Origin: a virus
Lineage: Duplodnaviria; Caudoviricetes
DNA: 64,000 bases
IMG/VR virus record: IMGVR_UViG_3300044655_001017
Strand: one strand, 5' to 3'
Part shown: in pieces, positions 40,229 through 55,969 of the stretch
Layout of the letters: every line of letters starts with the position of its first letter
Position numbering within the stretch: the stretch's first letter is position 1
Notes under the pieces: model-generated
Seen by the model: the letters and a program-made list of their open reading frames with translations, nothing else
Told to the model about the DNA's origin: nothing
Database searches by the model: none
Translations under genes and position numbers: made by a program

Positions 40229-40732
40229 ACTAACTCCACTGTGTGTATACTGTATATATCACTGTGACGCCACTGTAGAGGTAGGGTGCGGGCCGAAAGG
40301 GTCCTAGGGGTCTAAAAAATTTCCCGCGCAAAAAATTAGAGAGAAGTACTTACAGATTCTCCCTGGTGATTTAGTACCTATGGGGTTAAATTTAGAGGAG
40401 TTTTTAGAGTTTTTAGAGTTTAGGGAAAAAAGGTTGCGTTGTTGTAAAAAAACAACAAATTGTTGTATTATATGTCCCCCCACCCCTCGGGGCATTGTAT
40501 TGCGTTACACTATTATAGCACACTACACACTACATTGCAAGCTTTTTTTACGCAAAAAACTAAAAAAATAAAAAAATAATTTAACATTTTTTTAAAAAAA
40601 CGCTTGCTATTTTTTTAAATTACTGTATAATATGCTGTAAGTTAAGTAGTTAAGCAGTTTACTTAACTAGCGCACTAAATGTGTGCATACACGTTTAGTG
40701 CTACATTATACGCACTAAAAAAGGGCATAACT

Positions 40733-41113
40733 ATGTTAGACAATATTACAGTACAAAGCATTGCAAGTAAAAGCAACAAAACCGTGCAATGTGTAGGGGT
40801 TAGCACGCACGAAAAAGCGACAATAGGCACTAAGATACGTTTTAGCGGTAAGCCCGATAGTAGTGCGCGTGTTAGCACGCTAATTGCAACAAAATTGCAC
40901 AGCGACATAATTATGTGCGATTTAAGTGCGCAGGTTAGCGAATTGCAAGGCGCGGTTATAGTGCGCGATACGTTAGCAGATACAGACTACTTGCAAGCGC
41001 ACCAATTAAGTGCAATAGATAGCTACATTGCTAAATACAGTACGCACGAAATTAGTGCAGCACGGGAAAACATTAGCAATAACAATATTAAAATTGTTAA
41101 AATACTAATGTAA
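40733..41113 (+). CDS. Early protein, K(I/V)RF...H(S/T)DI family, copy 1
   Basis: Own promoter and terminator; paralogue of 43310..43693 and 48826..49179. Confidence 0.7.
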   Translation: MLDNITVQSIASKSNKTVQCVGVSTHEKATIGTKIRFSGKPDSSARVSTLIATKLHSDIIMCDLSAQVSELQGAVIVRDTLADTDYLQAHQLSAIDSYIAKYSTHEISAARENISNNNIKIVKILM

Positions 41114-41125
41114 CACAGTAACACA

Positions 41126-41158
41126 GCAACTACACTGCAAAGTGTAGTTGCTTTTTTA
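41126..41158 (+). terminator. Rho-independent terminator
   Basis: agcaactacact-gcaa-agtgtagttgct-ttttt. Confidence 0.85.
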
Positions 41159-41327
41159 CTTGCTTTTTTAGTTTGTTTATGCTATAATAACGCATAGTAA
41201 AAAGTTAAAATAAAAAGCTATAGCGGGGCCGTCGGTGGCCAAGACAGACTGGATTTGAAAAGGCCGGAACCGAAACCACTATCCGATAGCTCTCCAAGTA
41301 TCTACCATAGCTCTCCACCTAGACCTC

Positions 41328-41366
41328 ACTGTATCCTTACTGTATCCTTACTGTATCCTTACTGTA
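41328..41366. repeat. 11-bp tandem repeat (ACTGTATCCTT x3.5)
   Basis: Directly visible; reads AAGGATACAGT on minus. Confidence 0.9.
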
Positions 41367-41407
41367 CCGGCAACAGGTGCTATATTAGTATAGCACCTTT
41401 CCCCACC

Positions 41408-41557
41408 TTAGTCAACTAAGTCTTTAAACCGTTTTATCTTACTAGTAAAGCGTGCCGCGTGTTCCTTACGTGTAAGGCTAAGCACGGTAACAAACGCTCC
41501 GCTTAATGCGTATGCGTTTCGTTTATATATGTAACCATAATAGTTGTTTGTTTGCAT
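41408..41557 (-). CDS. Small early protein (49 aa)
   Basis: ATG after promoter and ACAGCGTG leader. Confidence 0.55.
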   Translation of the reverse strand: MQTNNYYGYIYKRNAYALSGAFVTVLSLTRKEHAARFTSKIKRFKDLVD

Positions 41558-42153
41558 AGTATGTTGCACGCTGTAGTTGTTTAGTAAGTGCATATTATAG
41601 CACGCTACACAAAAAATGCAAGCATTATTTTTACAAACAATAACCACACACAACCACCTATCCATAACCCCAATTTTCAAATATCTCACAGCGGGGCCTT
41701 TATAAAAGTGGTCACTTATGGCAAATGGATACAAGCGGTAAGCACTAACGCAAATTTGCGTTTTAAGCGTTGTTTGTTGTGTACTGCTATAGTTGCATTG
41801 CTTAGTATATAAACGCGTATTGTGTACACGTTAACGCGCAAGTTTTAGCAATGTAAATTATAAATGCTAAGTGTATTTTACACGCGCACGACAAATATTA
41901 AAAGTTTACAGCGGGGTATTGATATACCGGTTGCTCATTATGCTATACTATAGTATAATATTGGTATATTGAAACGTTGGTAAGATGGTAAAGAGGTTGA
42001 GGGCAGAGATAAGGGAAAGCCCGGTCCATTGCATACTGGATTCCGGGCTTTGGGCATACTATGTAAGTATGTTGTATGGTTGGTGAACAAATGCTACTAC
42101 CCATCTGCCCACCTGAGGTCTTTAGTCTTTACAGCGGGGCCTTTCTATAGGTC

Positions 42154-42231
42154 CTACTTTGTTTTGCGTCTAATTACTCGACGGCATGCGATTGTACTTT
42201 TTTTGGTTGCGCGATCGGATCTTCTTGCCAT
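42154..42231 (-). CDS. 25-aa basic peptide MARRSDRATKKSTIACRRVIRRKTK
   Basis: Promoter at 42278-42305, GGAGA RBS; absent from ORF track. Confidence 0.45.
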   Translation of the reverse strand: MARRSDRATKKSTIACRRVIRRKTK

Positions 42232-42338
42232 GTTGTTCTCCAGTGTTGTTGTAAAAAAGTATTTAACGTTTTAACTATTATACTATAGTGTTAAAGTAAA
42301 TGCAAGCACTTTTTACAGTGCTTGCATTGTGTTATTGT

Positions 42339-42698
42339 TTAATTAACAGTGCTATTTTGCACTTGTTTAACATACTTATTAAATGTTTTTTTAGTAACAC
42401 ATTTTATGTAAGCGTTGTTAATTTGCATTTGCGTTAAATTAGCGTTATTTGCTAGCGTTACTGTATAGCTAACACTGTAATTGCTAGCAAAGTTAATGTT
42501 AGCAACAAAAGCACTGCTAACATAGCATAACACATAATTTTTAGCTGCTTTGTATATTGTACGCTTTGCGTGTTTTTGCTTTGTTGCTATTACTTTGTTA
42601 TTAGCTACATAAGCGTTAAGCACTTGTAACATAGCTTGTTGCGTTGCTTTGTTACTGTTTTTTTGCGCTTGTTTGCGCGTTGCTGTAATTGTTTGCAT
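42339..42698 (-). CDS. Early protein (119 aa) with no Asp, Glu, Gly, Pro or Trp
   Basis: Own promoter (42765-42792) and terminator (42299-42328). Confidence 0.6.
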   Translation of the reverse strand: MQTITATRKQAQKNSNKATQQAMLQVLNAYVANNKVIATKQKHAKRTIYKAAKNYVLCYVSSAFVANINFASNYSVSYTVTLANNANLTQMQINNAYIKCVTKKTFNKYVKQVQNSTVN

Positions 42699-42805
42699 AA
42701 TATACACACTATAGTTAAATTGTTAAAAAGCGTATGTTAAACGTAATTGCTTAACACAGTGCATATTATACACGTTTGTGTACAATATGCAAGCGTTATT
42801 TTTAA

Positions 42806-42982
42806 TTATTTTAGCAGTGCATCAAACGCTCCGCAAAACCCTGCAAACGCTATTGTTATCGGAGTAGCAACCAGCATCCACGTTACCGCGTCCACCATGA
42901 AGTTCATAACTCCATATTGCGTGTTACGCGCGTTTGCTTGTTTGTTTAAAAAATTTTGTACTGTTTGTTGTTTAGTTTGCAT
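42806..42982 (-). CDS. Small early membrane protein (58 aa)
   Basis: Promoter 43019-43046; hydrophobic C-half. Confidence 0.55.
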   Translation of the reverse strand: MQTKQQTVQNFLNKQANARNTQYGVMNFMVDAVTWMLVATPITIAFAGFCGAFDALLK

Positions 42983-43309
42983 AGTAGTAAGCACGCTGTT
43001 GTTGTTTAGTAAGTGCATAGTATAGCACGTTTAAAAATAATTGCAAGCTTTATTTGTATATTGTTTTCCGGTTGCCCAACACCTGCGAAGCCGGGGGGGG
43101 GGGGTGGTTGGTCGGTCTGTCCGATTGCCTAGCGGTCTAGTCCGGCTCTGTGGTGTGCATAGTATAGCACGTTTGTGTTGTAATTGCAAGCACTTTTTTA
43201 TTTAATTTTAGCATAGTAGTTTGCACGCTGTAGTTGTTTAAGTAGTGCATAGTATAGCATAGTTAAAACAAAAACGCAAGCACTTTTTACAGTGCTTGCG
43301 CTTGCTATG

Positions 43310-43693
43310 TTATTTAAGCACTGCTATTATTTGCACGTTATTAGTGCTTAATTCGTCTTGTGCATTGCTTTGCTCTTGTGCATTAAACTTATTTACAAAA
43401 GCTTGCATTGCACTATTTTGTTGCTCGTTATGATGTTCGCCTTGTTGTAGTGCAACAAGTGTTGCAGCTAATTCCGTGCATTGCACGTTTAAAGTGTAAA
43501 ATACTATATCGCTATGCTCTTTTGTTGCTAAAAGCGTGCTTACGCGTGCTTGCGCTGTTTTATCTGTAAAGCGTACTTTATAACCTATTGTCGCTTTAAC
43601 GTGCAAGCTTGCGCCTACTGCTATTACTTTTTTAGTGCTTGCGTTAATGCTGTTAACTACAATGTTTTGCACGCTAATGTTGCTGTTTGTCAT
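43310..43693 (-). CDS. Early protein, KVRF...HSDI family, copy 2
   Basis: GGAGCG RBS, tandem promoters, terminator 43274-43300. Confidence 0.7.
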   Translation of the reverse strand: MTNSNISVQNIVVNSINASTKKVIAVGASLHVKATIGYKVRFTDKTAQARVSTLLATKEHSDIVFYTLNVQCTELAATLVALQQGEHHNEQQNSAMQAFVNKFNAQEQSNAQDELSTNNVQIIAVLK

Positions 43694-43975
43694 TTTCTCG
43701 CTCCGAGTGTTGCACTAAAATAGTGCTATTAGTTAATACTGCTGTTTGTTACTACAAGTGCTATTATACGCTGTTTATTTGCACTTGTAAAGCGTTTTTT
43801 TAAAATACTTTTAAAACGCTTTTTTGTTGCACTGCTTTACTACAAAAACTATTATACGCTTTTTTGCGTAAATGTAAAGCGTTTTTTTATTTTATTTTTT
43901 GCTTGCATTTACTGTTTTATTGTGTTATAATAGCGCAAGCGTAAAGCCCGCGCTACCGGTTCTCTCTATACCGCC

Positions 43976-44173
43976 TTACCTCATATCGCTGTCCGCCGCT
44001 TTATCACAGCGTGTCGCATATCCGGTGAGCACCGACTCATTCAACTTATCGAGGAGTTGAACTTCCATTGCCCGGTGTTGTTGGCACTCAGCTAGTGTTG
44101 GATATATGAATGTGTTATCAATTTCCTGCGCCCCAATAAACATCATCACTTTCAATATATATAATGCTTCCAT
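43976..44173 (-). CDS. Small early protein (65 aa)
   Basis: Promoter 44221-44249, GGAGCA RBS. Confidence 0.6.
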   Translation of the reverse strand: MEALYILKVMMFIGAQEIDNTFIYPTLAECQQHRAMEVQLLDKLNESVLTGYATRCDKAADSDMR

Positions 44174-44264
44174 TGTTCTTGCTCCGCTTGTTACGTTAGC
44201 TTTATTGCTAACTTGCATATAGTATAGCAAACTATTAAACTATATGCAAGTGTTTTGTTTTCGA

Positions 44265-44438
44265 CTAGTCCACTAATGCACTTGCTCTAAGATCCACAAA
44301 GTTCGCATACTTCATTGTGTCTTTTGTTTCTCTGCGCTCACGTAGTAGTGCAGTCCGGGCACGCTCGACTTCTCTGCGGGTCTGTACACCAATTAGTCTT
44401 GCGCTCAACACTGCCGTATATTCTTGTACCGGTTTCAT
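44265..44438 (-). CDS. Small basic early protein (57 aa, MKPVQEYTAV...)
   Basis: AGGAG RBS; absent from ORF track. Confidence 0.55.
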   Translation of the reverse strand: MKPVQEYTAVLSARLIGVQTRREVERARTALLRERRETKDTMKYANFVDLRASALVD

Positions 44439-44501
44439 TCTATGCTCCTAATGGTTTCAAAAGTTCGTTGTTGTCAGCACGTCCATGTGCCCTGTGTTAG
44501 T

Positions 44502-44801
44502 TTATAGTCCGTACATTTCAGCTACGCTGTTTGCCACACGTCCGTCGTTACCCCATTGTACTTTAATGCAACCCGGATGTTCATTGCCCAGTGCTGCCAA
44601 CTTAGCAAGTGCCAATTCCCAGTTGTTTAGTTTGTCTACTGGTTTCGGAGCGTCAGCACTTGTAAAGTAGTTAGCTGGTGGTACCTTACGTTCCGGAACA
44701 TTGCTTTTACTTGTTTTCACTTTGCCGCCTGCTTCCAAAAACGCTTGTACTGCATTGTTTGTTGCTGTGTTTTTTGCTTGTTTGTTTGTATTAGTAAACA
44801 T
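44502..44801 (-). CDS. Early protein with SutA-like RNAP-binding motif
   Basis: NAVQAFLEAGGKVKTS. Confidence 0.55.
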   Translation of the reverse strand: MFTNTNKQAKNTATNNAVQAFLEAGGKVKTSKSNVPERKVPPANYFTSADAPKPVDKLNNWELALAKLAALGNEHPGCIKVQWGNDGRVANSVAEMYGL

Positions 44802-44976
44802 AATTTGCACGCTGTAGTAGTGTTAACAGTTAAACGTTATTGCTTAACTTGCATATAGTATAGCAAAGCAAAACTGGTATGTAAAGCGTTTTTTTTAAGT
44901 GTTGTTTCCATTGTGCCCACGCGTGTACACATAAACAGCGGGGCCTTTTCGGCACTTCCCTGTGCCGTTGTATCCG

Positions 44977-45318
44977 TTATAGTCCCGATCCGCATAAGCA
45001 GTTATACACAAACTCAGCATCCTGTAATGCCACATTGTTTATGTAATCCACTAAGTCCTTGTGCTCCTCTACTTCCTCTACAAACGCTTGTACCGCAGCA
45101 TCATCGTTCCACAAGTCATCATGTGCTTCGTAATGTCTGTTGTATATTGTTACCATTTGCGCAATTATATGCACCGGATGTTCAGTAGTGCCCCACTCCT
45201 CCGCATAGTTCTCGTCCGCCAACATAAACACTGTACTTGTTACGCTGGGAGTTAGCGGGTACTTGCTTGTGTTTGCGTTTGCTGTGTTAATTTTTGTTGC
45301 TGTAGTAGTATTTTGCAT
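44977..45318 (-). CDS. Early acidic protein, tandem duplicate A
   Basis: YNRHYEAHDDLWNDDAA shared with 45487..45834. Confidence 0.7.
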   Translation of the reverse strand: MQNTTTATKINTANANTSKYPLTPSVTSTVFMLADENYAEEWGTTEHPVHIIAQMVTIYNRHYEAHDDLWNDDAAVQAFVEEVEEHKDLVDYINNVALQDAEFVYNCLCGSGL

Positions 45319-45486
45319 AGTTAGCACGCTGTAGTTATAAGTTAGCTTAATTGCTAACTTGTACATATTATAGCACGTTTAAACATTTTGTAAAGCGTTT
45401 TTTTAAGTTTTGTTTTCGCTGTTACCATACGCGTGTACACATAGCAGCGGGGCCTTTCCGAGCACGTCCATGTGCTCTGTGTTATC

Positions 45487-45834
45487 TTACAAGCCCGAGC
45501 AACATAAGCAATCATACACAAACACTGTGTTCTGTAATGCCACATTGTTTATGTAATCCACTAACTTCGCATTGTCCTCAACTTCCTCTATACACGCTTG
45601 CATCGCAGCATCATCGTTCCACAAGTCATCATGTGCTTCGTAATGTCTGTTGTATATCTCTGCTATCTTTAATACTATGTGTGTCGGATGTGTCGTTGTG
45701 CTCCACTCCTCCGCAAAGCTCGCATCCGCCAACAGTGCCAGCACACTTGTTTTGCTCGGATAGTACCCGGGCAATTTGCTTGTGTTTACGTTTTGTGTGT
45801 TAATTTTTGTTGCTGTAGTAGTATTAGTTTGCAT
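45487..45834 (-). CDS. Early acidic protein, tandem duplicate B
   Basis: Paralogue of 44977..45318 including promoter and 3' elements. Confidence 0.7.
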   Translation of the reverse strand: MQTNTTTATKINTQNVNTSKLPGYYPSKTSVLALLADASFAEEWSTTTHPTHIVLKIAEIYNRHYEAHDDLWNDDAAMQACIEEVEDNAKLVDYINNVALQNTVFVYDCLCCSGL

Positions 45835-46013
45835 AATAAGCACGCTGTAGTAGTGTTAACAGTTAAGCGTTATTGCTTAACTTGTACATAGTATAACACG
45901 TTTAAACATTTTGTAAAGCGGTATTTTAGAGTATTGTTTCCGACATAACCGGGGGGGGGGTGGTCGGTCGGTCTGTCAGATTGCTTGGCACTTCCCTGTG
46001 CTCGATATATCAG

Positions 46014-46385
46014 TTATGCCATTATGCTCGCTACTTCAGTGTATCGTTGTTTCAATCTTTCGATCATATGGAGTAAGTCGACATTAAAGACTAAGTCATA
46101 TACATCGCTTTCCGTTGTACTCACTATACCAATTGCACTCGTGTAATGGAGTTGTTCGACTATAGTCGTTACAGTCGTTACATCTATTTTCAATTGTTTC
46201 GATACTTCGGCTAGTAACACTTTCGAAACTGTCTTGCGATCTCTGTCCGCTAGTCTATGAAACCCTTTTGCCAACATCCTTGCAACATCGGTATTTTGGC
46301 GTATCGTTGCACCAATGCTATCGTTATGCTCGTGTAACTCGTTTAAAAACTTAATATGGTTTCTCAATACTGTTTGGATAATCAT
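46014..46385 (-). CDS. Hypothetical early protein
   Basis: 123 aa, GGAGCG RBS. Confidence 0.65.
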   Translation of the reverse strand: MIIQTVLRNHIKFLNELHEHNDSIGATIRQNTDVARMLAKGFHRLADRDRKTVSKVLLAEVSKQLKIDVTTVTTIVEQLHYTSAIGIVSTTESDVYDLVFNVDLLHMIERLKQRYTEVASIMA

Positions 46386-46450
46386 TATGCGCTCCAGTTA
46401 ATCAGTTAAGTACGCGCATACTCGATATATGCGCGTGTAAACAGCGGGGT

Positions 46451-46717
46451 CTATTGGCGTGCTTTGATTGCCGATTGCACCTGCTTGTTCAACAGCCCAA
46501 TTGCCGCTAGCTCCTCTTTAGCTTGTTCCCATGTGTATCGTTGTTTCTCTACTACAACTACGCGGGGAGTATGGACTTGTGATACTGTAGTGCGTCCTCT
46601 GCGTCCTGTTTTAGTTGTTTTAATTGCTCCTCCGGTTGCTAAGAACATTGCCACGCGAGCCGCTAACTCCGCTGCTTGTTGTTGTTTAACTTCGTTGTTC
46701 ATAATACCTGTTGCCAT
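46451..46717 (-). CDS. Early protein with SutA-like RNAP-binding motif
   Basis: LAARVAMFLATGGAIKTT; GGAGCG RBS. Confidence 0.55.
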   Translation of the reverse strand: MATGIMNNEVKQQQAAELAARVAMFLATGGAIKTTKTGRRGRTTVSQVHTPRVVVVEKQRYTWEQAKEELAAIGLLNKQVQSAIKARQ

Positions 46718-46878
46718 TATACACGCTCCGCTTTATCGTTAATGTCAGTTTCTTCAGTTTGCTCACAATCCCAACATGGTTCAAGCTCATCTGTTTCCAT
46801 GTTGTATAGTACAGTCAAGTCCCCACACGTAGTGCAATACGCGCGTAGTGGGTAAGTGTTTTTGTATTGTACTTGCAT
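46717..46878 (-). CDS. Small Zn-ribbon-like protein (53 aa)
   Basis: CTTC...CWDC; promoter 46912-46940. Confidence 0.55.
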   Translation of the reverse strand: MQVQYKNTYPLRAYCTTCGDLTVLYNMETDELEPCWDCEQTEETDINDKAERV

Positions 46879-46983
46879 AATTTTTACACGCTGTTTTGTT
46901 AATGTGTGCATATTATAGCATTGTAACACGCGCATTGCAAGTAGTTTGTTAACCGCAATGCGCGTGTACATAAGCAGCGGGGC

Positions 46984-47400
46984 CTATACGGTAGTTACGA
47001 GCAACAAGTTGTCCAACACATCCGCTTTAGCTCTGTATACCATGTTGCCGTGTCTCGTATGCTCAATTACAATCCCATTTGCCTCACACCACAAGTCCAA
47101 ACGCGCTGCTCTTAAGCTCACTTTATCTTTAAACTGTGGTTTGTTGACTTTAACGGCAATAAACTTTTTTCTGTAGTTCATAAACACGTTGCTCTGTATA
47201 TACACATCCTCAATGTGTGCTAACAACGCTTCCCCTGCGCTCAATTGCACTAAGCTATACAAACTCTCATTCTCAGCGTCTCTGCGTTTAATATCCTCTA
47301 AGCACACGTAAGCTGGAAGTTTGACGTCATCCGATGTGTGTGATACAGCGTGTACAATAGCAGTAGCTGTGTTTTTGAGTAATTTAGTAGTTGTTGACAT
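46984..47400 (-). CDS. Hypothetical early protein
   Basis: 138 aa, GGAGCG RBS, own promoter. Confidence 0.65.
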   Translation of the reverse strand: MSTTTKLLKNTATAIVHAVSHTSDDVKLPAYVCLEDIKRRDAENESLYSLVQLSAGEALLAHIEDVYIQSNVFMNYRKKFIAVKVNKPQFKDKVSLRAARLDLWCEANGIVIEHTRHGNMVYRAKADVLDNLLLVTTV

Positions 47401-47505
47401 ATGATACGCTCCGAAAGTTATGTTAAGTTTTAAACAGTTAGCTGTTTTGCTAACTTGTACATATTATAGCAAACTAAGTACAAGTTAGCAAGTGATATTT
47501 TTGAA

Positions 47506-47694
47506 CTATAGTTCCACTAGCTCGCCGCGTGCTACTGCGTCCGCAGCTTCTAGTTCCTCTTTATAGAACTTGTTGATAGCATTGTTTGTTTCGAGATACG
47601 ATTTGGAGTTTTTGGCTTGTGTACGCAATTGGCGTGTGAGCATGTTAATGTATTTGATACGCGCGGCGCTTGTGATGTAAAGTATTTTTTGCAT
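47506..47694 (-). CDS. Small early protein, NSKxYLE family
   Basis: NSKSYLETNNAINKFY; paralogous to 48161..48418. Confidence 0.6.
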   Translation of the reverse strand: MQKILYITSAARIKYINMLTRQLRTQAKNSKSYLETNNAINKFYKEELEAADAVARGELVEL

Positions 47695-47793
47695 AATATA
47701 CACGCTATAGTTATAAGTTAGCTTAATTGCTAACTTGTACATATTATAGCAAACTATATACAAGTTAGCAAATGGTATTTTAGAACTTTGTTT

Positions 47794-48066
47794 TCACCCT
47801 TCCGGATAGCAACCAGCTTCCATCATTGCATAGATAACTCGTTCTCTTGGTAGAGTATCTTGATATACCAGCGAGTTGATTAACTGATCGTAGTCGCCGC
47901 TTTTCATATAACTGATTAAACACTTTTGGTTGTACTTGCCATCTTCAATTGCCAAGTCCATAAAGTCCCACTCATCTGCTTCGGCATACTCTTTTGCTTG
48001 AGCATTGAAGTCGGTAACACATTGTTTGAGGGTAGCGATTACAACAGGATTAGTAGTGTTTGGCAT
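47794..48066 (-). CDS. Hypothetical early protein
   Basis: 90 aa, own promoter. Confidence 0.65.
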   Translation of the reverse strand: MPNTTNPVVIATLKQCVTDFNAQAKEYAEADEWDFMDLAIEDGKYNQKCLISYMKSGDYDQLINSLVYQDTLPRERVIYAMMEAGCYPEG

Positions 48067-48160
48067 AGTAGTTTACACGCTGTAGTAGTTAAGTAAGTGT
48101 ATATTATAAAGCATTGCAGGCGGTTTGTAAAGAACTTTGTTAACCGCCTGCCGGTATATA

Positions 48161-48418
48161 CTACGCGGCTTCTAATTGCGCCAATGCAAACGCTTCATCA
48201 AGTGCCATCTCCGCAATGTATATACGGTTTAACTGAGTGTTGGCTTCCAGGTAAGCTTTGGAGTTAACACGCGCGGCACTGATTTGAGAGCGGAGCGAAC
48301 GGATTTGGCGGGCGGTCGCTTCCGATACAAGGCGCTTTGGCTTTTGGGCAGCTGCCTCCGCTTCGGCTTGCTTGTGTGCTTTAAGTTTGGCTGCTAACGA
48401 TACATTGTATTTTGACAT
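48161..48418 (-). CDS. Small early protein, NSKxYLE family
   Basis: NSKAYLEANTQLNRIY. Confidence 0.6.
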   Translation of the reverse strand: MSKYNVSLAAKLKAHKQAEAEAAAQKPKRLVSEATARQIRSLRSQISAARVNSKAYLEANTQLNRIYIAEMALDEAFALAQLEAA

Positions 48419-48587
48419 AGTAGTTTACACGCTTGTTGTTAAGTAAGTGCATATTATACTATAGTATGCACTGGTTGTCAAGAACTTTATATTCACCCGC
48501 GCTCGCACACGCGTAAACAGCGGGGTCTATCCGGGGGGGGGGAGGTCGGTCGGATTGGCCGGTTATTCGCTGCCCCCAATCTATCGG

Positions 48588-48761
48588 TTACTCATCGTCC
48601 CATATGTCGTCCCAGTCTATTGGTGTGTAGGCATCATCTATATCGTCTCCCCAGTCTTCGTCCATTCCTGCAAAGAACTCTTTTCGCTCTTGCATTAAGG
48701 TCGCACCGCGTGTTTGAAGTATTGCTAACTGCTCTCTTAAGTTTTGCTCTATAGCTTCCAT
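48588..48761 (-). CDS. 57-aa protein with highly acidic Asp/Trp tail
   Basis: ...DEDWGDDIDDAYTPIDWDDIWDDE; GGAGC RBS; absent from ORF track. Confidence 0.6.
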   Translation of the reverse strand: MEAIEQNLREQLAILQTRGATLMQERKEFFAGMDEDWGDDIDDAYTPIDWDDIWDDE

Positions 48762-48825
48762 AACAGCTCCGACTAATTAGTTAAGTCGCCCCGCCATACA
48801 CACATATGCAGCGGGGCCTATTACT

Positions 48826-49179
48826 CTATGCTACTGCTAACTCAGCTTCCAGTGCATCTGCTGCTGCCGCGTAGTCCACTTCCTCAACTACTACACTTTG
48901 TGGAGCAACCACTGTGTACTTGCTAAAGAAGTCATCGAATGCTTGTTGTGCATCTAAGTCCTCTAACTCTGTGTAGTTCTTAATTGCCATTGCTGCATCA
49001 TACTTGGTCATTGCACCGTCTAGCGCAAACAATCTAATGTCTGTGTGTCCATTGCGTTGTAACACTTTCACACGATCCGCTTTGTTAGCAAATCGTACTT
49101 TGTACACACCATTTAAGTTGCTGATGCCAGCGAAAGTAAATGTTTTTTCAACTGCAGTAACTGTGATTAAGTTTGACAT
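48826..49179 (-). CDS. Early protein, KVRF...HTDI family, copy 3
   Basis: KVRFANKADRVKVLQRNGHTDIRL; GGAGCG RBS. Confidence 0.7.
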   Translation of the reverse strand: MSNLITVTAVEKTFTFAGISNLNGVYKVRFANKADRVKVLQRNGHTDIRLFALDGAMTKYDAAMAIKNYTELEDLDAQQAFDDFFSKYTVVAPQSVVVEEVDYAAAADALEAELAVA

Positions 49180-49273
49180 ATTGTACGCTCCAAAAAATAG
49201 AAAAGTTAAGTTGTTTTACTGCTAGTTAGCTAACGCGCTTGTTAGCTAACTTGTTACATATTATACAGCATTT

Positions 49274-49507
49274 TTAAAACATTGCAAGCATTTTGTTTTC
49301 TCTTGCTTCAAGTATTGCATCAATACGCGCCTCAACACTCTCTGCGCTCTCAAGTGTTGTCCAGCCGCCGTTGTTGTGGCGTCCATCTTGTACTGAAGTT
49401 TCCATAATTCCTGTGTTTCTATTTTTATACTCCGACACTGTGATAGTAGTGTTAAAGTAGATAGTAACGATGTTGTTGCTTGTTGTAGTAATTTTTAATT
49501 TATACAT
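49274..49507 (-). CDS. Hypothetical early protein (77 aa)
   Basis: Own promoter, GGAGCG RBS; 3' end carries next -35 box. Confidence 0.6.
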   Translation of the reverse strand: MYKLKITTTSNNIVTIYFNTTITVSEYKNRNTGIMETSVQDGRHNNGGWTTLESAESVEARIDAILEARENKMLAMF

Positions 49508-49577
49508 AATACGCGCTCCGCATTGTTGTTTAACTTGTACATAGTATAGCAAACTTATTTTGGTTTGTAAAGAAGTT

Positions 49578-49667
49578 TTAAATCACTAGCTCATACCAGT
49601 TCAATACAGCGATTGCGCTCAATAATACGATAGTAGTGAATACTGCGAATGTGTGTATAAACGACAT
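49578..49667 (-). CDS. 29-aa hydrophobic peptide
   Basis: TTGACA promoter and AGGAGC RBS; single TM-like stretch. Confidence 0.45.
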   Translation of the reverse strand: MSFIHTFAVFTTIVLLSAIAVLNWYELVI

Positions 49668-49737
49668 TTTGTTTGCTCCTCATATATATAGTACACGCAT
49701 AGTATAGCAAACTACATACAGGTTGTCAACTGGTTTG

Positions 49738-50304
49738 TTACTCGGTGTATGCCGCCATTACCAATCCCACATAGTTCTGAGTCTCCGGATATGGTGGAAC
49801 CTTATTCTTATGCCGCATCACCGCATGCTCGCCCGCATTGTAACCGGCTACTGCTAGTTTGGTATCTTTGAATGTATCGAGCAAGAACCTTAGGAACCGA
49901 ACTCCACCTTCAATGTTCTGTCTTTCATCCATCCGATCACTCACTCCAAATCGCTCTGCCGTTGCCGGCATCAGCTGCATCAATCCAGCCGCACCTTTCT
50001 TACTTACAGCCGATTTGCGATATGTACTTTCCGTTTTAATGACTGCATGTACCAACTTCTCATCCACTCCATACTTCTTTGCAGCGATATGAACATAGTG
50101 ATTGACTTCCCATCGGGTTAATGGTTTGGTCTCCGGTTTCGCTACTATAGTAGTATGAACAACTGGTTTGGCTGCAGTATTGATCTCAACCGGATGATCT
50201 GTTAACCAAACTCGCCCATCCGCTCCCGTATATCTATATACATCCGCATTCACCGGCATTACTACTATAGTAGCGAGAATGGCAGCGCGGATCATTTGGC
50301 GCAC
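49738..50304 (-). CDS. Lytic transglycosylase (SLT) with signal peptide and DUF4124-like N-domain
   Basis: AVIKTES catalytic Glu, GAAGLMQLMP, AGYNAGE, PPYPETQNYV; DVYRYTGADGRVWLTD. Confidence 0.92.
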   Translation of the reverse strand: MRQMIRAAILATIVVMPVNADVYRYTGADGRVWLTDHPVEINTAAKPVVHTTIVAKPETKPLTRWEVNHYVHIAAKKYGVDEKLVHAVIKTESTYRKSAVSKKGAAGLMQLMPATAERFGVSDRMDERQNIEGGVRFLRFLLDTFKDTKLAVAGYNAGEHAVMRHKNKVPPYPETQNYVGLVMAAYTE

Positions 50305-50588
50305 TCTGCTGCGAACTTAACCATTGCTGCATACTCTGGATTGGCTACAGCGGTGACTACATGAGTAAGTAAATGAGCAATCATTGTAATCCCACCGATC
50401 CATGCTACGATCATTACACATGCATAGGTAAACGCATCCGATCCATTGAACTCATCTTTTAATAACTTAAACAGATAGTATGATCCAGCTAATACTCCAG
50501 ATATTACTACTATAGCGGCAATGTCTGGAATGGTGTCTATAATAGCTTGCTTTGCCAATAACTCTTGTGGTACATTGCATAACTTCAT
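50292..50588 (-). CDS. Two-TM membrane protein
   Basis: 98 aa, own promoter, GGAGCG RBS. Confidence 0.6.
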   Translation of the reverse strand: MKLCNVPQELLAKQAIIDTIPDIAAIVVISGVLAGSYYLFKLLKDEFNGSDAFTYACVMIVAWIGGITMIAHLLTHVVTAVANPEYAAMVKFAAECAK

Positions 50589-50989
50589 AACGCGCTCCGC
50601 AGTTGTTGTTTAACTTGTACATATTATAGCATACACAGCGGGGTCTGTAAAGAACTTTGTTACTCGTATACGCCCACTTGTATGTGCGCGTGTAGCGTGT
50701 TATATTATAAGCGCATAGCATACTATAGTATAAGTATGCTCACGCACTATAGCGCATTTATACGCGATATACGCTATGATACACTATAGTATAATAATAA
50801 GCGCATATACACATATGAGTAACTATGCACAGCGGGGCCTTTTATAGGTCCAGGACTCGATAATAACTCGTCATCTTCGGTTTTTGGCCCGCGTCGTTAG
50901 CGGTCTGCAACACCATGATTTTGCCGTTTTTCACGTTTATAGACCGACCTAGTACCAGAGTACAGGGTCCGGTTAAAAAGAATAAGAAA

Positions 50990-51104
50990 AAGCTCACTTT
51001 AGGGAGCGAATCTAAAGTGAGCTTATAGAGTTACTATAGTATAGGGAGCGAATCTATACTATAGTATATAGAGTATAGTTGGGAGCGAATCAACTATACT
51101 CTAT
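50990..51104. ncRNA. Three tandem hairpins with identical 11-nt loop (candidate regulatory RNA element)
   Basis: Perfect 12-13 bp stems of different sequence around GGGAGCGAATC at 51002, 51044, 51081. Confidence 0.6.
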
Positions 51105-51121
51105 TCATATGCGCGTTATTA

Positions 51122-52000
51122 TTATCTATGTGGGCGCATACAAGTTACAGAAGCTACTGCTTCCCAGTTAGTTGGCATTGCTTTACGCAAATCTGCTACT
51201 TTAAGAACCATACGCAAACTCAATTCACGCATTTTCTTTCTGTGTGTATCGATGTAGTTGAGGATCTCTTCAGCTTCATCTTCTTGGAATTCATACTTGT
51301 CTAGCATACCGTCGCTTACGATTTGCTTAATACGCAACATCTTTTCGCGTTCTGTGTCTATAGTAAGATCTAAGTAGTGGCAACGCGACTCTAATGCTTC
51401 TAAATGATCTTGCAATTTCTTGCTACGAACATGATCAAACTTAACATTTGTAATGAATATACAGCCGCCTTCAAAGTCAAAACTATTTGGAATACCTGCG
51501 TCCTTTAGTATGCGTGACTCTGTGTGCCAACTGATAGTACGCTTACGCCCAGTATCCAATGCTGCTTTGAGCAAGTTGAGCGCAATATCATCAAACAATA
51601 CACTATCGCAGTCGTCAAACACTACGATACACTTCTTGTCCTTATAGTCCCACAGCATTTGATATAAACATAATGCACTGATGTTACCTTTTGCTATAGT
51701 GTACTTCTTTAAGGTTTCATCTTGTGCTACATTGGCGAACACATCATAACGCGATAACACTGTTTCTACACCGTGTGATTTGCCTACTCCAGGTGGTCCA
51801 CTTACGATCATAGCGCGAACATCACCTTTCTTTACTGCACGAGTCATATCATCTAGTATGGCAAACCGTGTGCGCAACCGTTCTACAATCTCTTCGTCCG
51901 TTTCGTGTGATACATGTTCAGCCGGTCTTTGCGCTATAGTACGGTTGGTCTTGATTGTGTCTACGGTGATCATTTGTGGTCTTGCTACTGTTTGTTGCAT
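51122..52000 (-). CDS. AAA+ ATPase
   Basis: SGPPGVGKS, VFDDCD, IFITN, ALESRC; TTGACA promoter at 52033-52061. Confidence 0.85.
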   Translation of the reverse strand: MQQTVARPQMITVDTIKTNRTIAQRPAEHVSHETDEEIVERLRTRFAILDDMTRAVKKGDVRAMIVSGPPGVGKSHGVETVLSRYDVFANVAQDETLKKYTIAKGNISALCLYQMLWDYKDKKCIVVFDDCDSVLFDDIALNLLKAALDTGRKRTISWHTESRILKDAGIPNSFDFEGGCIFITNVKFDHVRSKKLQDHLEALESRCHYLDLTIDTEREKMLRIKQIVSDGMLDKYEFQEDEAEEILNYIDTHRKKMRELSLRMVLKVADLRKAMPTNWEAVASVTCMRPHR

Positions 52001-52791: not shown

Positions 52792-53055
52792 TTATACATA
52801 ACGTCCGGGACTTCTAGTTGGAAAAGGATAATCTCTCACCGGAACAGCTGTGTATGTCAAATCAATCAAGTGAATAAGTTTAGCAGATACATTATCAGAT
52901 CTCCATGGATCTAGATTCTCAAACTTACCACTATATATGATTTCAAACATAGTAGGGAATCGCCAGTCGTATTTGTCTTTGTGTGTGCAAGTAATAATGA
53001 ATAAGAACGCATCGTCTTGTGTCGTTTGGTATAAGTGGGGAGCAAGTTCAATCAT
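52792..53055 (-). CDS. Mini Lcl/DUF1566-like protein 23
   Basis: TCTHKDKYDWRFPT...PVRD. Confidence 0.7.
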   Translation of the reverse strand: MIELAPHLYQTTQDDAFLFIITCTHKDKYDWRFPTMFEIIYSGKFENLDPWRSDNVSAKLIHLIDLTYTAVPVRDYPFPTRSPGRYV

Positions 53056-53267
53056 AAGGTTCTCACTGGGATTACATAGAGTACATAATATTCTTGTAGA
53101 ACTTGAAATCTACCTTCATGCCAAGCTGATGTAAACTGAAAACTTTTATATTCGTTAGCTGTTGGTAGTCGCCAGTCCTTATGGCCATTGTAGTCAAGTG
53201 TAATACAGTATAGCCAAGCTTCGTCATAAGTTATTTCTTGTTGTGTTTGTAGGGCTAGTTCAATCAT
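53052..53267 (-). CDS. Mini Lcl/DUF1566-like protein 22
   Basis: YDEAWLYC..DWRLPT...PVRT. Confidence 0.7.
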   Translation of the reverse strand: MIELALQTQQEITYDEAWLYCITLDYNGHKDWRLPTANEYKSFQFTSAWHEGRFQVLQEYYVLYVIPVRTL

Positions 53268-53428
53268 TTGCTTACTCTTGTGGGTACTGCTATAAAAAGG
53301 GTGTGACGACCTGAGACGTCTAAGCAGTGTATCCAATCATAGTGTCCATCGTGTGTACAGGTATAACAATAAAGCATCGCTTCGTCATATAACAAGGGTT
53401 CGCTCCGTGGGGCGTATTCAAGCGTCAT
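53264..53428 (-). CDS. Mini Lcl/DUF1566-like protein 21 (degenerate, lacks RLPT)
   Basis: YDEAMLYCYTCTHDGHYDW then diverges. Confidence 0.55.
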   Translation of the reverse strand: MTLEYAPRSEPLLYDEAMLYCYTCTHDGHYDWIHCLDVSGRHTLFIAVPTRVSK

Positions 53429-53643
53429 AAGTCTCTTATAAGTCGTATTATCTTCCAATCTTGGTTTGTACTATTTCTCGATAAGTAGGGTATATCGACA
53501 AATCCATTAGTGTCGGTTAGTTCGCGAATAGATGCTGGCCTCCAGTCGTATTTGCCATTATGGGTACATGTAGCCGAGTATAGCCAAATCGAGTCTTGGT
53601 TCCAGTCATATAAATCGCTAATAGGGGATAGTTCGTGTTTCAT
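53425..53643 (-). CDS. Mini Lcl/DUF1566-like protein 20
   Basis: TCTHNGKYDWRP...LIRD. Confidence 0.7.
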   Translation of the reverse strand: MKHELSPISDLYDWNQDSIWLYSATCTHNGKYDWRPASIRELTDTNGFVDIPYLSRNSTNQDWKIIRLIRDL

Positions 53644-53855
53644 ACGTCTCTCACTGGGGTTACATATGTTTGGTGATCGAAATAGTCTCGCTCATACCAC
53701 TGTCCGAGTATCAGAGGTTGATACTTTCTTCCAAAGTGTTCTAGCATCGTAGGCATGCGCCAATCATATTTCTTTTTATGGGTGCAAGTGGCTACATATA
53801 GCCAAGCTTCGTCATATGAGAAGTCACGTCGTTTAGTAGTAGCTTGTTCAATCAT
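53640..53855 (-). CDS. Mini Lcl/DUF1566-like protein 19
   Basis: YDEAWLY..TCTH..YDWRMPT...PVRD. Confidence 0.7.
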   Translation of the reverse strand: MIEQATTKRRDFSYDEAWLYVATCTHKKKYDWRMPTMLEHFGRKYQPLILGQWYERDYFDHQTYVTPVRDV

Positions 53856-54045
53856 CTCTTGATCCTCTTACTGGGCAGAATTGTATGTTGCGACGTTGCT
53901 CTGTTGTTCTTAGTTTAACATTGCTGGAGAAGTCGCCAGCAGTTGGCATTCGCCAGTCATACTTGTTGTTGTGTGTACAAGTTATCGCATATAAGAATGC
54001 TTCGTCATATGGCATTAAATGTGACATAGGGGCTGCTTCAATCAT
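53848..54045 (-). CDS. Mini Lcl/DUF1566-like protein 18
   Basis: YDEAFLY..TCTHNNKYDWRMPT...PVR. Confidence 0.7.
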   Translation of the reverse strand: MIEAAPMSHLMPYDEAFLYAITCTHNNKYDWRMPTAGDFSSNVKLRTTEQRRNIQFCPVRGSRDD

Positions 54046-54262
54046 CTTTAGTTCTCACAGGGGATACCTTCCACATATATGGTACCATTGTCTTACGATT
54101 AAAATCACTAGCATTCCAACTACCGGTTATAATCAAGTCTGCACATTCTTTTATAGTAGGCATTCGCCAGTCGTATTTGTTTTCGTGTGTGCAAGTGTAT
54201 ATGTATAGTTCGGCGTTATAGGCATCTAGTTTGGCGGTAGTCTTAGGGGCTTGTTCAATCAT
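54038..54262 (-). CDS. Mini Lcl/DUF1566-like protein 17
   Basis: TCTHENKYDWRMPT...PVRT. Confidence 0.7.
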   Translation of the reverse strand: MIEQAPKTTAKLDAYNAELYIYTCTHENKYDWRMPTIKECADLIITGSWNASDFNRKTMVPYMWKVSPVRTKDD

Positions 54263-54456
54263 ATAGTTCTCACTGGGGTTACATAGAACCATTCGGATGG
54301 TTGTGAAAAACTATACTTGAGAATATTAGGGTACACTGATACATCTCCAATAGTAGGATATCGCCAGTCATACTTGTTGTTGTGAGTACAAGTAACGCAG
54401 TATAGCCAAGCTTCGTTATAAGAGAGTACCTGGAATTCAATAGCAAACTCAAGCAT
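54259..54456 (-). CDS. Mini Lcl/DUF1566-like protein 16
   Basis: YNEAWLYC.TCTHNNKYDWRYPT...PVRT. Confidence 0.7.
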   Translation of the reverse strand: MLEFAIEFQVLSYNEAWLYCVTCTHNNKYDWRYPTIGDVSVYPNILKYSFSQPSEWFYVTPVRTI

Positions 54457-54673
54457 CTGTATCCCTCACTGCTATTAAAATAAAGCGGTCGAGTGGCTCT
54501 ATATATGGACTTTTGATTAGTGAATCACACCATATTGGACCATCTGTAAGTTTTACGCATTCATCGCGTGTTGGGAAACGCCAATCGTACTTGTTTTCGT
54601 GTGTTAGTGTCCAAATGTAAAGTTCAGCTTCTTCACACGATTTTGAGTGTGATAAAATTTTAGCTTCAATCAT
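54449..54673 (-). CDS. Mini Lcl/DUF1566-like protein 15
   Basis: THENKYDWRFPT..E...AVRD. Confidence 0.7.
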   Translation of the reverse strand: MIEAKILSHSKSCEEAELYIWTLTHENKYDWRFPTRDECVKLTDGPIWCDSLIKSPYIEPLDRFILIAVRDTDA

Positions 54674-54890
54674 CTTTATCTCTCACTGGGTGTATGTACC
54701 ATGCAACACCTGCGTAACGATAAGTCTCATAAGGCAGATGGAACCAATGCGAATCCATATTATATATTGAGCATTCAGTAAACGTAGGTATTCGCCAATC
54801 ATACTTGTTGTTATATGTTAAGGTAGCACAGTATAGCCAGGCTATATCATACGAACACTTTGTCTTATGCTTTGTTGCTTGTTCAATCAT
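54666..54890 (-). CDS. Mini Lcl/DUF1566-like protein 14
   Basis: YNNKYDWRIPT..E...PVRD. Confidence 0.7.
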   Translation of the reverse strand: MIEQATKHKTKCSYDIAWLYCATLTYNNKYDWRIPTFTECSIYNMDSHWFHLPYETYRYAGVAWYIHPVRDKDD

Positions 54891-55110
54891 CTTTATCTCT
54901 CACTGGGTAAACTGCTCTTTCTAAATCCTTATTGTTATAGTCATACCAGGTGCTATGCCAGGTCAGAGGAGGCATCTCATCAGTGTCATCATATTCTGCT
55001 GATGTCGGAAACCGCCAGTCATATTTGTTGTTGTGGGTTAGGGTATAGATGTATAACATTGCTTCGTCTATTGTTACAAAGCAGTCGTCATGTGGTCCTA
55101 ATTCAATCAT
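54883..55110 (-). CDS. Mini Lcl/DUF1566-like protein 13
   Basis: THNNKYDWRFPT..E...PVRD. Confidence 0.7.
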   Translation of the reverse strand: MIELGPHDDCFVTIDEAMLYIYTLTHNNKYDWRFPTSAEYDDTDEMPPLTWHSTWYDYNNKDLERAVYPVRDKDD

Positions 55111-55334
55111 ATAGTTCTCACTGGGATCAATGCGCATTTCATATCATCCAACTGACCCATAAGATCATGCTGATGCCAACATACTGGGCGTTTGGGTAGA
55201 GCAGGCGTAGCGTGCCGTAGTTCCATTATAGTAGGGAGCCTCCAATCGTAGTGATTGTTATAGGTTAGCGTCATCGTGTATAGTTCAGCTTCATCTATAG
55301 TAACAAACTTGATCATAGGTGCTTGTTCAAACAT
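55107..55334 (-). CDS. Mini Lcl/DUF1566-like protein 12
   Basis: YNNHYDWRLPTIMEL...PVRT. Confidence 0.7.
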   Translation of the reverse strand: MFEQAPMIKFVTIDEAELYTMTLTYNNHYDWRLPTIMELRHATPALPKRPVCWHQHDLMGQLDDMKCALIPVRTI

Positions 55335-55545
55335 CTTTATCTCTCACTGGAATTACATAAAGTTCCATCCATAGGACCATATCGGGTATTCTATCAATAT
55401 GCCAAGTAGTAGCTGGGAAGTGGTTGTGTTCTTTTGATGTAGGCATACGCCAGTCATATTTTCGTCTATCGGTACAGGTATAACAATACAGCAATGCTTC
55501 GTCATACTCTAATTGTTGTGCTGATTGGTATCCTGTTTCAATCAT
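55327..55545 (-). CDS. Mini Lcl/DUF1566-like protein 11
   Basis: YDEALLYCYTCT..KYDWRMPT...PVRD. Confidence 0.7.
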   Translation of the reverse strand: MIETGYQSAQQLEYDEALLYCYTCTDRRKYDWRMPTSKEHNHFPATTWHIDRIPDMVLWMELYVIPVRDKDV

Positions 55546-55760
55546 ATATCTCTCACTGGGTAAACAAGCATTTGGCTAAGACTAGAACTAAGATAGTACG
55601 GGTTCGTCCAGCCGCTATAGTTTCGCATTTGATGGCTATTCATTTCCTTCCAAGTAGGCAATCTCCAATCTCTATATCCGTTATGTTCTAGTGTAATACA
55701 GTATAGCCAGGCTTCATCTAATATTAGTGTATGAGATGAGCATGGGCCTATTTCTAACAT
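55542..55760 (-). CDS. Mini Lcl/DUF1566-like protein 10
   Basis: DEAWLYC..LEHNGYRDWRLPT..E...PVRD. Confidence 0.72.
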   Translation of the reverse strand: MLEIGPCSSHTLILDEAWLYCITLEHNGYRDWRLPTWKEMNSHQMRNYSGWTNPYYLSSSLSQMLVYPVRDI

Positions 55761-55969
55761 TTATCTCTTACCAATATCAGATGCATTAGGTCAATGTCTG
55801 GATCTTGGAATGCTGGAGAATCAGTCCATGACCATCCAATGCCTATGTTATAGGTCTCTTGATAAGTAGGAAACCTCCAGTCGTTATGTCCGTTGTGTGT
55901 ACAAGTTAGCATATAAAGAAAAGCTTGGTTATATGTTAGGTTACATTCTATAGGTGTTCCTTCAATCAT
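55754..55969 (-). CDS. Mini Lcl/DUF1566-like protein 9
   Basis: TCTHNGHNDWRFPT..E...LVRD. Confidence 0.7.
   Translation of the reverse strand: MIEGTPIECNLTYNQAFLYMLTCTHNGHNDWRFPTYQETYNIGIGWSWTDSPAFQDPDIDLMHLILVRDKC

Follow-up and report, generated by a model that had tools for sequence, protein, structure and literature searches.

A conserved, oriented punctuation motif in the early regions of uncultured phages

The Locus and Its Twelve Motif Copies

The 64-kb stretch of the IMG/VR virus record IMGVR_UViG_3300044655_001017, referred to below as the window, is a fragment of an uncultured lake jumbo myovirus. The tail sheath of this phage is ~40% identical to those of Atu_ph07, Phosso and PA5oct, and none of the deposited phages has a nucleotide match to the window. 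Late structural genes occupy 1–41 kb on the plus strand, and small early-type genes, accompanied by many strong promoters of the TTGACA/TATAAT type, fill 41–64 kb on the minus strand. A short motif, AGCGGGG on the plus strand, recurs among the early genes; since these genes lie on the minus strand, where the motif is read, it stands on their coding strand. It is best classed among the conserved regulatory motifs that punctuate phage early regions in a fixed orientation.

AGCGGGG is found 12 times in the 64 kb, always on the plus strand (41222, 41690, 41910, 42133, 44937, 45446, 46443, 46976, 48519, 48810, 50637, and 50831; span 41222–50837), whereas 1.42 copies are expected by chance; the maximum among 100 dinucleotide-preserving shuffles was 6, and none attained 12. 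Zero copies lie outside 41.2–50.8 kb on either strand of the whole window. A first-pass annotation made from the sequence had already listed 12 copies, all on the plus strand, and had noticed none elsewhere in the window; its copies are real but its positions were 1–2 nt low. It had also described (A/G)C in front of the motif, and indeed −1 is C in 11 of the 12 copies and −2 is a purine (A or G) in every one, while Y-C-T-W-T follows. On the minus (gene) strand, the motif takes the form A-W-A-G-R-CCCCGCTG-Y, in which both variable positions (R and Y) vary by transitions only; an AT-rich T-A-W stretch follows the GC-rich core. The exact 12-mer AGRCCCCGCTGY has ten matches on the minus strand of the window. 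The two imperfect copies, at 41908–41919 and 41220–41231, carry one and two mismatches, respectively, and the remaining matches with one or two mismatches are at background level, degenerate copies being nearly nil. The motif is a sharply defined linear element of 12–15 conserved bases including its flanks. The cgcgtgta extension reported in the first pass can be recognized in about five copies but is not part of the element conserved in relatives. No longer repeated unit surrounds the motif, the inter-copy sequences being unrelated except between orthologues. A common repeat unit, such as a miniature inverted-repeat transposable element or an RNA gene, was rejected as the carrier because the inter-copy DNA is unrelated and Rfam and tRNA scans were empty; the motif region itself matched no Rfam family. 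A literature search for the motif sequence returned only unrelated primers and no description of it.

Followed along the minus strand, the first copy, AGGCCCCGCTGT (50829–50840), lies downstream of a three-hairpin RNA region (50990–51104) and 4 nt past a TAA, and ~190 nt of promoter-like non-coding DNA comes after it. The second, AGACCCCGCTGT (50635–50646), sits within the spacer of a TTTACA-17-TATAAT promoter (50651–50623), as the first-pass annotation had seen; a copy is kept at the matching position in L001 and L002 (L- and G-numbers denote other phage stretches and records in the comparison), and within a similar promoter at L026:7885. AGGCCCCGCTGC at 48808–48819 begins 9 nt past the stop of a 117-aa open reading frame (ORF; 48826–49179) and is the sole window copy with a downstream complementary arm (CGGGGCG); the ribosome-binding site (RBS) GGAGC and ATG 48761 come next. 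AGACCCCGCTGT at 48517–48528 directly follows a CCGACCGACC plus poly-C module, whose G-run occupies 48533–48542 of the plus strand, and precedes a TTGACA-17-TATAAT promoter (48481–48453) by 36 nt. The entire ~90-nt module bearing this copy is missing from the orthologous place in L064, so that the module is itself an indel.

The next four copies follow individual genes. The TAG of a 138-aa ORF (46984–47400) forms the 5′ flank of AGGCCCCGCTGC at 46974–46985, which is followed by a 13-bp hairpin and a TTGCAA-17-TATAAT promoter (46940–46912). The TAG of an 88-aa ORF (46451–46717) likewise flanks AGACCCCGCTGT at 46441–46452; no promoter comes after this copy, only the RBS GGAGCG and ATG 46385, 56 nt downstream. 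AGGCCCCGCTGC at 45444–45455 lies 34 nt past the stop of a 118-aa ORF (45487–45843), with a small hairpin (GAGCAC-AUGGAC-GUGCUC) just before it and a TTTACA-16-TATAAT promoter (45394–45367) after it. The same arrangement is seen at 44935–44946, where AGGCCCCGCTGT lies 33 nt past the stop of a 129-aa ORF (44977–45366), between the hairpin CGGCAC-AGGGAA-GUGCCG and a TTTACA-17-TATACT promoter (44885–44857); this ORF is a paralogue of 45487–45843, to which it is 68% identical.

The last four copies are in the largely non-coding end of the array. AGGCCCCGCTGT at 42131–42142, the first of them, comes after a 25-codon ORF (ATG ~42231, TAG ~42154). This ORF (42154–42231, minus strand) encodes the very basic peptide MARRSDRATKKSTIACRRVIRRKTK, has its own −10-like element and RBS, and ends 11 nt before the motif copy. 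The variant ATACCCCGCTGT (41908–41919, one mismatch) follows 223 nt later in non-coding DNA, just downstream of a palindromic promoter-like site, TATACTATAGTATA. After AGGCCCCGCTGT at 41688–41699 come a G/T-rich tract, then a promoter recognized by eye (TTGCAT-17-TATAAT), and then an ORF of 49 codons (ATG ~41556); together with the tract, this copy resembles the last control-region copy of distant relatives (L027:6975). The minus-strand array ends with the off-consensus copy CGGCCCCGCTAT (41220–41231, two mismatches), which precedes a bidirectional terminator hairpin (41125–41152) by ~70 nt and is kept in L002 (19437).

Placement Relative to Stops, Starts, and Promoters

The motif is confined to intergenic or 3′-terminal positions and is tied to the gene that ends before it. 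The upstream stop lies a median of 10 nt away and the next start a median of 101 nt, and the stop is the nearer of the two in 30 of 37 cases (p = 2e-4). For four window copies TAG is the motif's own 5′ flank (46443 and 46976 with called ORFs; 48519 and 48810 by sequence), and others have TAA 3–9 nt upstream; the first-pass observation that the minus-strand stops at 46451, 46984, and 48826 overlap or abut the motif is borne out. A small hairpin separates stop and motif in two paralogous cassettes (44937 and 45446). Over the 800 nt that follow a copy, coding runs on the motif strand in 55 cases, against 18.

Downstream of the window copies there is either a sigma-70-type promoter at 8–95 nt or directly the RBS of the next gene (46443 and 48810). 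By reading, a promoter was recognized within ~100 nt downstream of 7 of the window's 12 copies; in the set drawn from all phages, one stands within 150 nt for 46 of 99 copies, at distances that vary. In seven cases, including the 5′ leaders of genes at L025:5713 and L025:15215, the motif lies 22–27 nt past a −10 hexamer. A fixed geometry with sigma-70 promoters was rejected, since beyond this small cluster 71 of 99 copies are promoter-less upstream. No −10-like element was found at a fixed distance from the motif, and TATA-rich DNA is enriched on both sides of it without a fixed position.

The early promoter DNA of the window contains tracts free of GA, GG, TC, and CC, and most window copies mark the gene-side border of such a tract, with at most seven of these dinucleotides in the next 100 nt for 8 of the 12. 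This border position arises because the motif lies between the gene end and the promoter cassette. Elsewhere in the region, the same post-gene slot holds two canonical terminators and three CCGACCGACC plus poly-C modules. The latter make up a second post-gene module, CAATCnGAC(A)GACCGACC followed by 10–12 C, with three copies read on the minus strand between a stop and the next promoter (43093–43117, 45951–45969, and 48533–48551), the third of which is fused to the motif copy at 48519.

Conservation in Uncultured Relatives

With the 292-aa gene at 51122–52000, 24 related IMG/VR stretches were retrieved, and further relatives were found by exact-pattern scans; the low-GC set among them consists of uncultured phage contigs of 37–49% GC. 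Polarity is perfect in whole records. A 99%-identical relative that extends the early array past the window has 14 copies of CCCCGCTG on the gene strand and 0 on the other; four other records gave 10:0, 3:0, 5:0, and 4:0, and four further ones 5:0, 4:0, 8:0, and 4:0. Summed over the 61 low-GC stretches with at least two copies, some of which share a contig, 191 copies lie on one strand and 0 on the opposite one. The identical motif occurs in dozens of contigs from many different metagenome sample numbers, and its sequence is near-constant among diverged phages, in contrast to its drifting flanks. PA5oct, the nearest relative in culture, is without it.

Copies are also clustered. In G001, a close relative, the motif is present only within ~44 kb of co-directional early genes, with none in the 42 kb on the other strand. 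Most large relatives hold only 3–5 copies: G003 (356 kb, 96% complete) has three, all inside 330 nt of one non-coding region, and a 280-kb record has five within 13 kb; a 176-kb record has eight within 5 kb. A recurrent non-coding layout consists of a copy, 135–360 nt, a second copy, 36–57 nt (most often 43–44), and a third copy. Some clusters head a co-directional gene array (L050, L045, L022, and L028), and that of G001 lies ~1.4 kb into its array.

Several other elements accompany these control regions. A second conserved block, GAGTAwyyATTnnAACTATGCCTCTC, often stands 60–140 nt after the last control-region copy (L027:6975–7100, L028:3695–3850, L015, L043, L046, L049, L050, L073, L078, and L032); the ATG inside it could open a short ORF starting Met-Pro-Leu/Ile. 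Six of the stretches with this block have a conserved 70–86-aa ORF ~300 nt further on. This downstream ORF was rejected as the gene for a cognate factor because it is absent from the window and matched no Pfam family. Iteron-like tandem repeats adjoin some motif clusters: CTCACTATA, which resembles a T7 promoter core, is repeated many times in L046 (~7150–7400), and GAGCACTATA four times in L032 (reverse complement, ~9390–9430). These repeats may represent a replication origin or a protein-binding array.

In 13 contigs (L035, L037, L039, L042, L045, L049, L054, L055, L057, L058, L065, L067, and L077), an ORF with no PHROG or Pfam match, ~200 aa long (202 aa in L045 and L049), is enclosed by two motif copies spaced 673–732 nt. 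In 3 of the 13, the 202-aa ORF reads through the motif as Lys-Ala-Pro-Leu-stop. On the opposite strand of this group, the upstream copy abuts an ATAAATA that resembles a T4 late promoter and faces a divergent gene.

The scans also returned matches of another kind. In high-GC stretches (~60, plus L085, L086, L091, L103, L165, and L175), GGCCCCGCTG recurs as a collagen-like Gly-Pro-Ala coding repeat with spacings in multiples of 9 or 15; these stretches come from unrelated phages and are false positives of the tandem-pair scan. Because of such coding repeats, motif scans need to be filtered by the AG flank and the reading frame. Exact matches in high-GC phages such as L080 were likewise rejected as motif copies, being ordinary terminators that match by chance.

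Other Features of the Early Region

Nine early cassettes on the minus strand share a near-identical leader, TATAAT-atgcacttacttaacaac-TACAGCGTG-yaaactact-ATG, in which the tag ACAGCGTG stands where a Shine-Dalgarno sequence would be expected. The tag begins at 41574, 42999, 43231, 44815, 45332, 45848, 46894, and 48083, with the variant AAGCGTG at 48434 (all minus strand), and is limited to the window phage and its closest relatives, L002 and L034. The CGCUGU of the motif and the tag, read as ACAGCGUG, have a hexamer in common in opposite orientation. Pairing between the two was rejected because the tag is present only in the window, L002, and L034 and not in other motif-bearing regions.

An 11-nt tandem repeat, ACAGTAAGGAT (~3.5 copies; 41325–41375, minus strand), with two UGGAGAGCUAU repeats after it, lies in the space that separates the last small ORF from the last motif copy. 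The convergence point of late and early genes is flanked by paralogous genes at 40679–41113 (plus) and 43310–43693 (minus), which are 41% identical over 124 aa. The minus strand at 52792–58030 holds more than 20 tandem, overlapping genes of ~70 aa, which are mutual paralogues.

A Possible Site for Pausing and Factor Recruitment

ops is a 12-nt recruitment site, GGCGGTAGCGTG, for RfaH; its flanks cause RNA polymerase to pause, RfaH reads its variable centre on the non-template strand, and it has been predicted that unrelated proteins may exploit the same pause-and-read principle (PMC5995543). We give a probability of about one in three to the reading that the present motif is ops-like, a site at which the polymerase pauses and a factor is recruited on the non-template strand. 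As it transcribes the early region, host RNA polymerase would meet GG-CCCCGC-TG-Y on the coding (non-template) strand. The outer bases, GG upstream and TGY downstream, would make the polymerase pause, and the invariant centre CCCCGC, exposed on the non-template strand of the bubble, would then be bound by a dedicated factor. This putative factor would set the fate of the polymerase, either its release at the end of the early unit or its conversion to a termination-resistant form. In the window's phage group, we lean toward a stop or attenuation outcome because the copies end gene units just upstream of the next promoter, and because they occupy the slot in which the promoter-early stem-loop (PeSL) cassettes of T4-type phages carry a terminator stem-loop. 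A broader version, in which the motif defines a new ops-like family whose CCCCGC is read by a phage-encoded elongation factor unrelated to NusG, and which is widespread in uncultured jumbo and T4-like phages and gates or licenses host RNA polymerase along their early regions, is tentative and on balance doubtful.

The consensus elemental pause of bacterial RNA polymerase is g−11 G−10 t−3 g−2 Y−1 G+1 (PMC11077087). The motif agrees with it at five of six positions in one register (GG at −11/−10 and TGY at −3 to −1) and on the correct strand, a chance match having a probability of ~0.006 by a rough, post hoc estimate. The identity of the motif across contigs of 37–49% GC would be less puzzling if some of its bases were directed at the polymerase, which is conserved universally. 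For a linear motif without a pairing partner, readout on DNA or during transcription fits better than a folded RNA site.

Several observations weigh against an ops-like site. First, G+1 is not conserved, the base after Y being A in 33 of 53 copies and G in 11 of 53, and in ops the G12C change abolishes the pause (PMC5995543). Second, the reader protein is wholly hypothetical, because no NusG/RfaH-like protein, sigma-70 region 2 or single-subunit polymerase was detected in the relatives. The NusG/RfaH-like N-terminal domain (PF02357) was not found in G001–G005, which include the 96%-complete genome, with control genomes positive; sigma-70 region 2 (PF04542) was not detected in the five records by a search that T4 gp55-type factors would escape, nor was single-subunit RNA polymerase (PF00940) in a search without a positive control. 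Third, 71 of 99 copies have no recognizable promoter within 150 nt upstream, and some copies may never be transcribed in the sense direction; in the 13-contig group, copy A lies upstream of the only sigma-70-like promoter found there. Fourth, tandem copies at a spacing of 43–44 nt, close to four helical turns, could just as well be bound cooperatively by a protein on double-stranded DNA.

Alternative Readings

This spacing leads to the alternative that holds up best, although it too is unlikely: the motif could be a double-stranded DNA site for a protein (an operator, iteron, roadblock, or target of a recombinase or nickase), ancestral in one non-coding control region and dispersed only afterwards over the early region in the phage group of the window. 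The concentration of 3–5 copies in one non-coding region of most large relatives, in a conserved layout at about four helical turns, would agree with such a site, as would the adjoining iteron-like repeats of L046 and L032 (CTCACTATA and four GAGCACTATA) and the absence of constraint at the RNA level. Copies also flank small units as direct repeats, including the 202-aa ORF in 13 contigs, and the ~90-nt motif module present in the window and absent from L064 may be taken in the same sense. However, an asymmetric site that serves binding alone need not be co-oriented 191:0 or track gene direction 3:1, and copies scattered across ~50 kb of early genes do not resemble iterons or a centromere. Genes for a recombinase or a Rep-like protein were not observed beside the clusters, only a GIY-YIG ORF in one relative. 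The gains and losses of cassettes among the window, L002, and L034 are not motif-bounded: no motif stands at the borders of the indel or replacement breakpoints between the window and either relative (e.g. window 43.0–43.9 kb), and no empty-site junction was found for the 202-aa cassette. An integron-like cassette site was rejected on these two grounds, and a CRISPR-like mini-array or solitary repeat because the repeat is not long enough and the 'spacers', too, occur in duplicate (L053 and L160). The recombination site suggested in the first pass thus retains the flanking of small units, while the breakpoints off the motif and the missing empty site leave it weakly supported at best.

Next in standing, and again improbable, is an RNA signal: the transcribed AGRCCCCGCUGY would be bound or cut by an RNA-binding protein or endoribonuclease, separating early cistrons and setting 3′ ends or stability. 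The sites of T4 RegB and T7 RNase III are comparable cases of phage mRNA processing. The position of the motif on the sense strand right after stop codons suits such a role, and so do copies that end short non-coding units, the restriction of the two variable positions to transitions, and small hairpins just upstream that could protect a new 3′ end (44937, 45446, L018:15068, and L022:10295 and 12661). Of the three functions proposed in the first pass, an RNA 3′-end signal is the nearest in so far as the motif is on the coding strand and hugs the upstream stop, but no evidence of RNA structure or accessibility accompanies it. No conserved pairing partner was found, and no consistent hairpin includes or adjoins the motif. 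Intrinsic terminators are rare near the copies, and a downstream right arm, GCGGGG, is present in only 4 of 124, for which the motif was rejected as the left arm of a split terminator. Predicted RNA accessibility at the motif is 0.39, compared with 0.38 with shuffled flanks; with no consistent hairpin either, selection for structure, single-strandedness or accessibility around the motif was not seen. A linear specificity of 12–15 nt is also unusual for an RNA-binding protein or RNase, and Rfam was empty. A complementary guide RNA could not be encoded in the relatives, because the reverse complement of the motif never occurs in their records, and some copies apparently lie upstream of the sole nearby promoter. 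A signal read by the elongating polymerase is preferred to RNA processing because of this lack of a structural or accessibility signal and because copies are found in 5′ leaders and in a promoter spacer.

A phage-specific (middle) promoter, or the core of one, read by a phage polymerase, sigma-like factor or activator and often stacked with sigma-70-type early promoters, seems considerably less probable. Sharp, oriented intergenic motifs of 12–20 nt repeated 10–30 times are usually phage promoters, and tandem copies and overlap with host-type promoters are common in them. The motif is followed by the AT-rich T-A-W after its GC-rich core and lies 17–56 nt from the ATG where no sigma-70 promoter intervenes (L026:7598, L025:15195, 46443, and 48810). 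Against a promoter stand the lack of a −10-like element at fixed distance and the tie of the motif to the upstream stop rather than the downstream start. Neither PF00940, searched for without a positive control, nor PF04542 was detected in the relatives including the 96%-complete genome, which would own just three such promoters, all within 330 nt, and no gene follows the last window copy on the same strand.

Finally, the first-pass annotation had proposed, among other functions, a polar signal of the Chi or KOPS kind, to be read by a DNA translocase (RecBCD/AddAB, FtsK or a packaging motor). Strand polarity is perfect in every record, and the core contains sequences found in E. coli Chi (GCTG) and Bacillus Chi (AGCGG). 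Such a signal is nevertheless highly improbable, since Chi sites are host-specific and differ between host groups while the same motif spans 37–49% GC contigs from many sample numbers, and since its 12–15 conserved positions including flanks are intergenic or 3′-terminal only, are absent from the window's 40 kb of late genes and the first 42 kb of G001, and are clustered instead of genome-wide (pairs or triplets 36–360 nt apart in a shared layout; three copies in 356 kb, within 330 nt, and five in 280 kb).

Significance

Conserved, oriented intergenic motifs have been the route by which the temporal gene programmes of model phages were worked out. To our knowledge, almost no such motifs have been defined for uncultured jumbo phages. 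The present motif provides a precise and strictly polar marker of early regions, common to dozens of uncultured phage contigs, and is an obvious bait for the protein that reads it. If the motif turns out to be ops-like and to have a new reader, the predicted role of the consensus pause as a general platform on which regulators are recruited (PMC5995543) would be confirmed, and a new phage route to control the host polymerase would come to light. Even as a promoter, an RNA cleavage site or a nick site, the motif would represent a new regulatory class for a large phage group.

Comparison with Known Systems

The motif lacks the defining features of ops and of PeSL cassettes that were checked, as well as the genome-wide distribution of Chi. 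Chi and KOPS/SRS are short asymmetric motifs of 5–8 nt that occur genome-wide and inside genes with a strong strand bias. The motif is alike in strand bias but is intergenic, clustered and 12–15 nt long, with 3–5 copies in most large relatives.

The lambda nut sites and the boxA/boxC of rrn operons are polar transcribed signals located shortly after a promoter or right after the stop of a small gene. In some window copies the sequence is CGCTGTTTA, which departs from the boxA consensus CGCTCTTTA at a single base, and a GTGGGCAC-like tract follows the copies at 44937 and L002:16435. The conserved part of the motif is, however, AAGGCCCCGCTG; the boxA-like tail varies (GTAAAC, GCTTAT, and GTGAG), and there is no boxB-type hairpin. 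A GU-rich tract is found downstream of 26 of 78 copies and upstream of 20 of 78. An antitermination site of the boxA/boxC type was rejected because conforming copies are few in the window and the GU-rich tract is not a regular companion of the motif.

The PeSL cassettes of T4-type phages combine a stem-loop terminator with an early promoter, and their first half consists of a G-run, loop and C-run, or of A3-4G3-loop-C3T3-4 (PMC2839356, PMC4122927). As in these cassettes, the motif belongs to variable early regions and lies, in the orientation of the genes, between the end of a small gene and the next sigma-70-type promoter; the 41–51 kb of the window displays this order of gene, element, and promoter. 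It differs in being a linear 12-mer with neither a partner arm nor a stem-loop terminator, and its distance to the promoter is 8–95 nt, with many copies promoter-less. Indels among the relatives are not bounded by the motif, which is also kept without a promoter cassette in the control regions of distant relatives.

The closest parallel is ops, with differences that are equally clear. The central hexamer is CCCGCT in the motif and GGTAGC in ops, so that the 12-nt ops sequence, GGCGGTAGnnTG, is not reproduced; G+1 is present in just 11 of 53 copies, and G001–G005 have no NusG/RfaH-like gene. ops occurs only in operon leaders, whereas the motif is mostly found right after stops and in tandem clusters: some clusters do head gene arrays, but most window copies follow genes, and four are at the array end. 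On the other hand, both elements are 12 nt long, have one orientation and are sharply conserved, and both lie in transcribed leader or intergenic DNA without a fixed distance to a promoter; readout on the non-template strand is proposed for the motif. In single-stranded form the motif could conceivably fold into a mini-hairpin of two pairs, G:C and C:G, with CCC as the loop, as in ops. The outer bases GGC-N6-GT are common to both (GGCCCCGCTGY in the motif), and both fit the elemental pause at −11, −10, −2, and −1.

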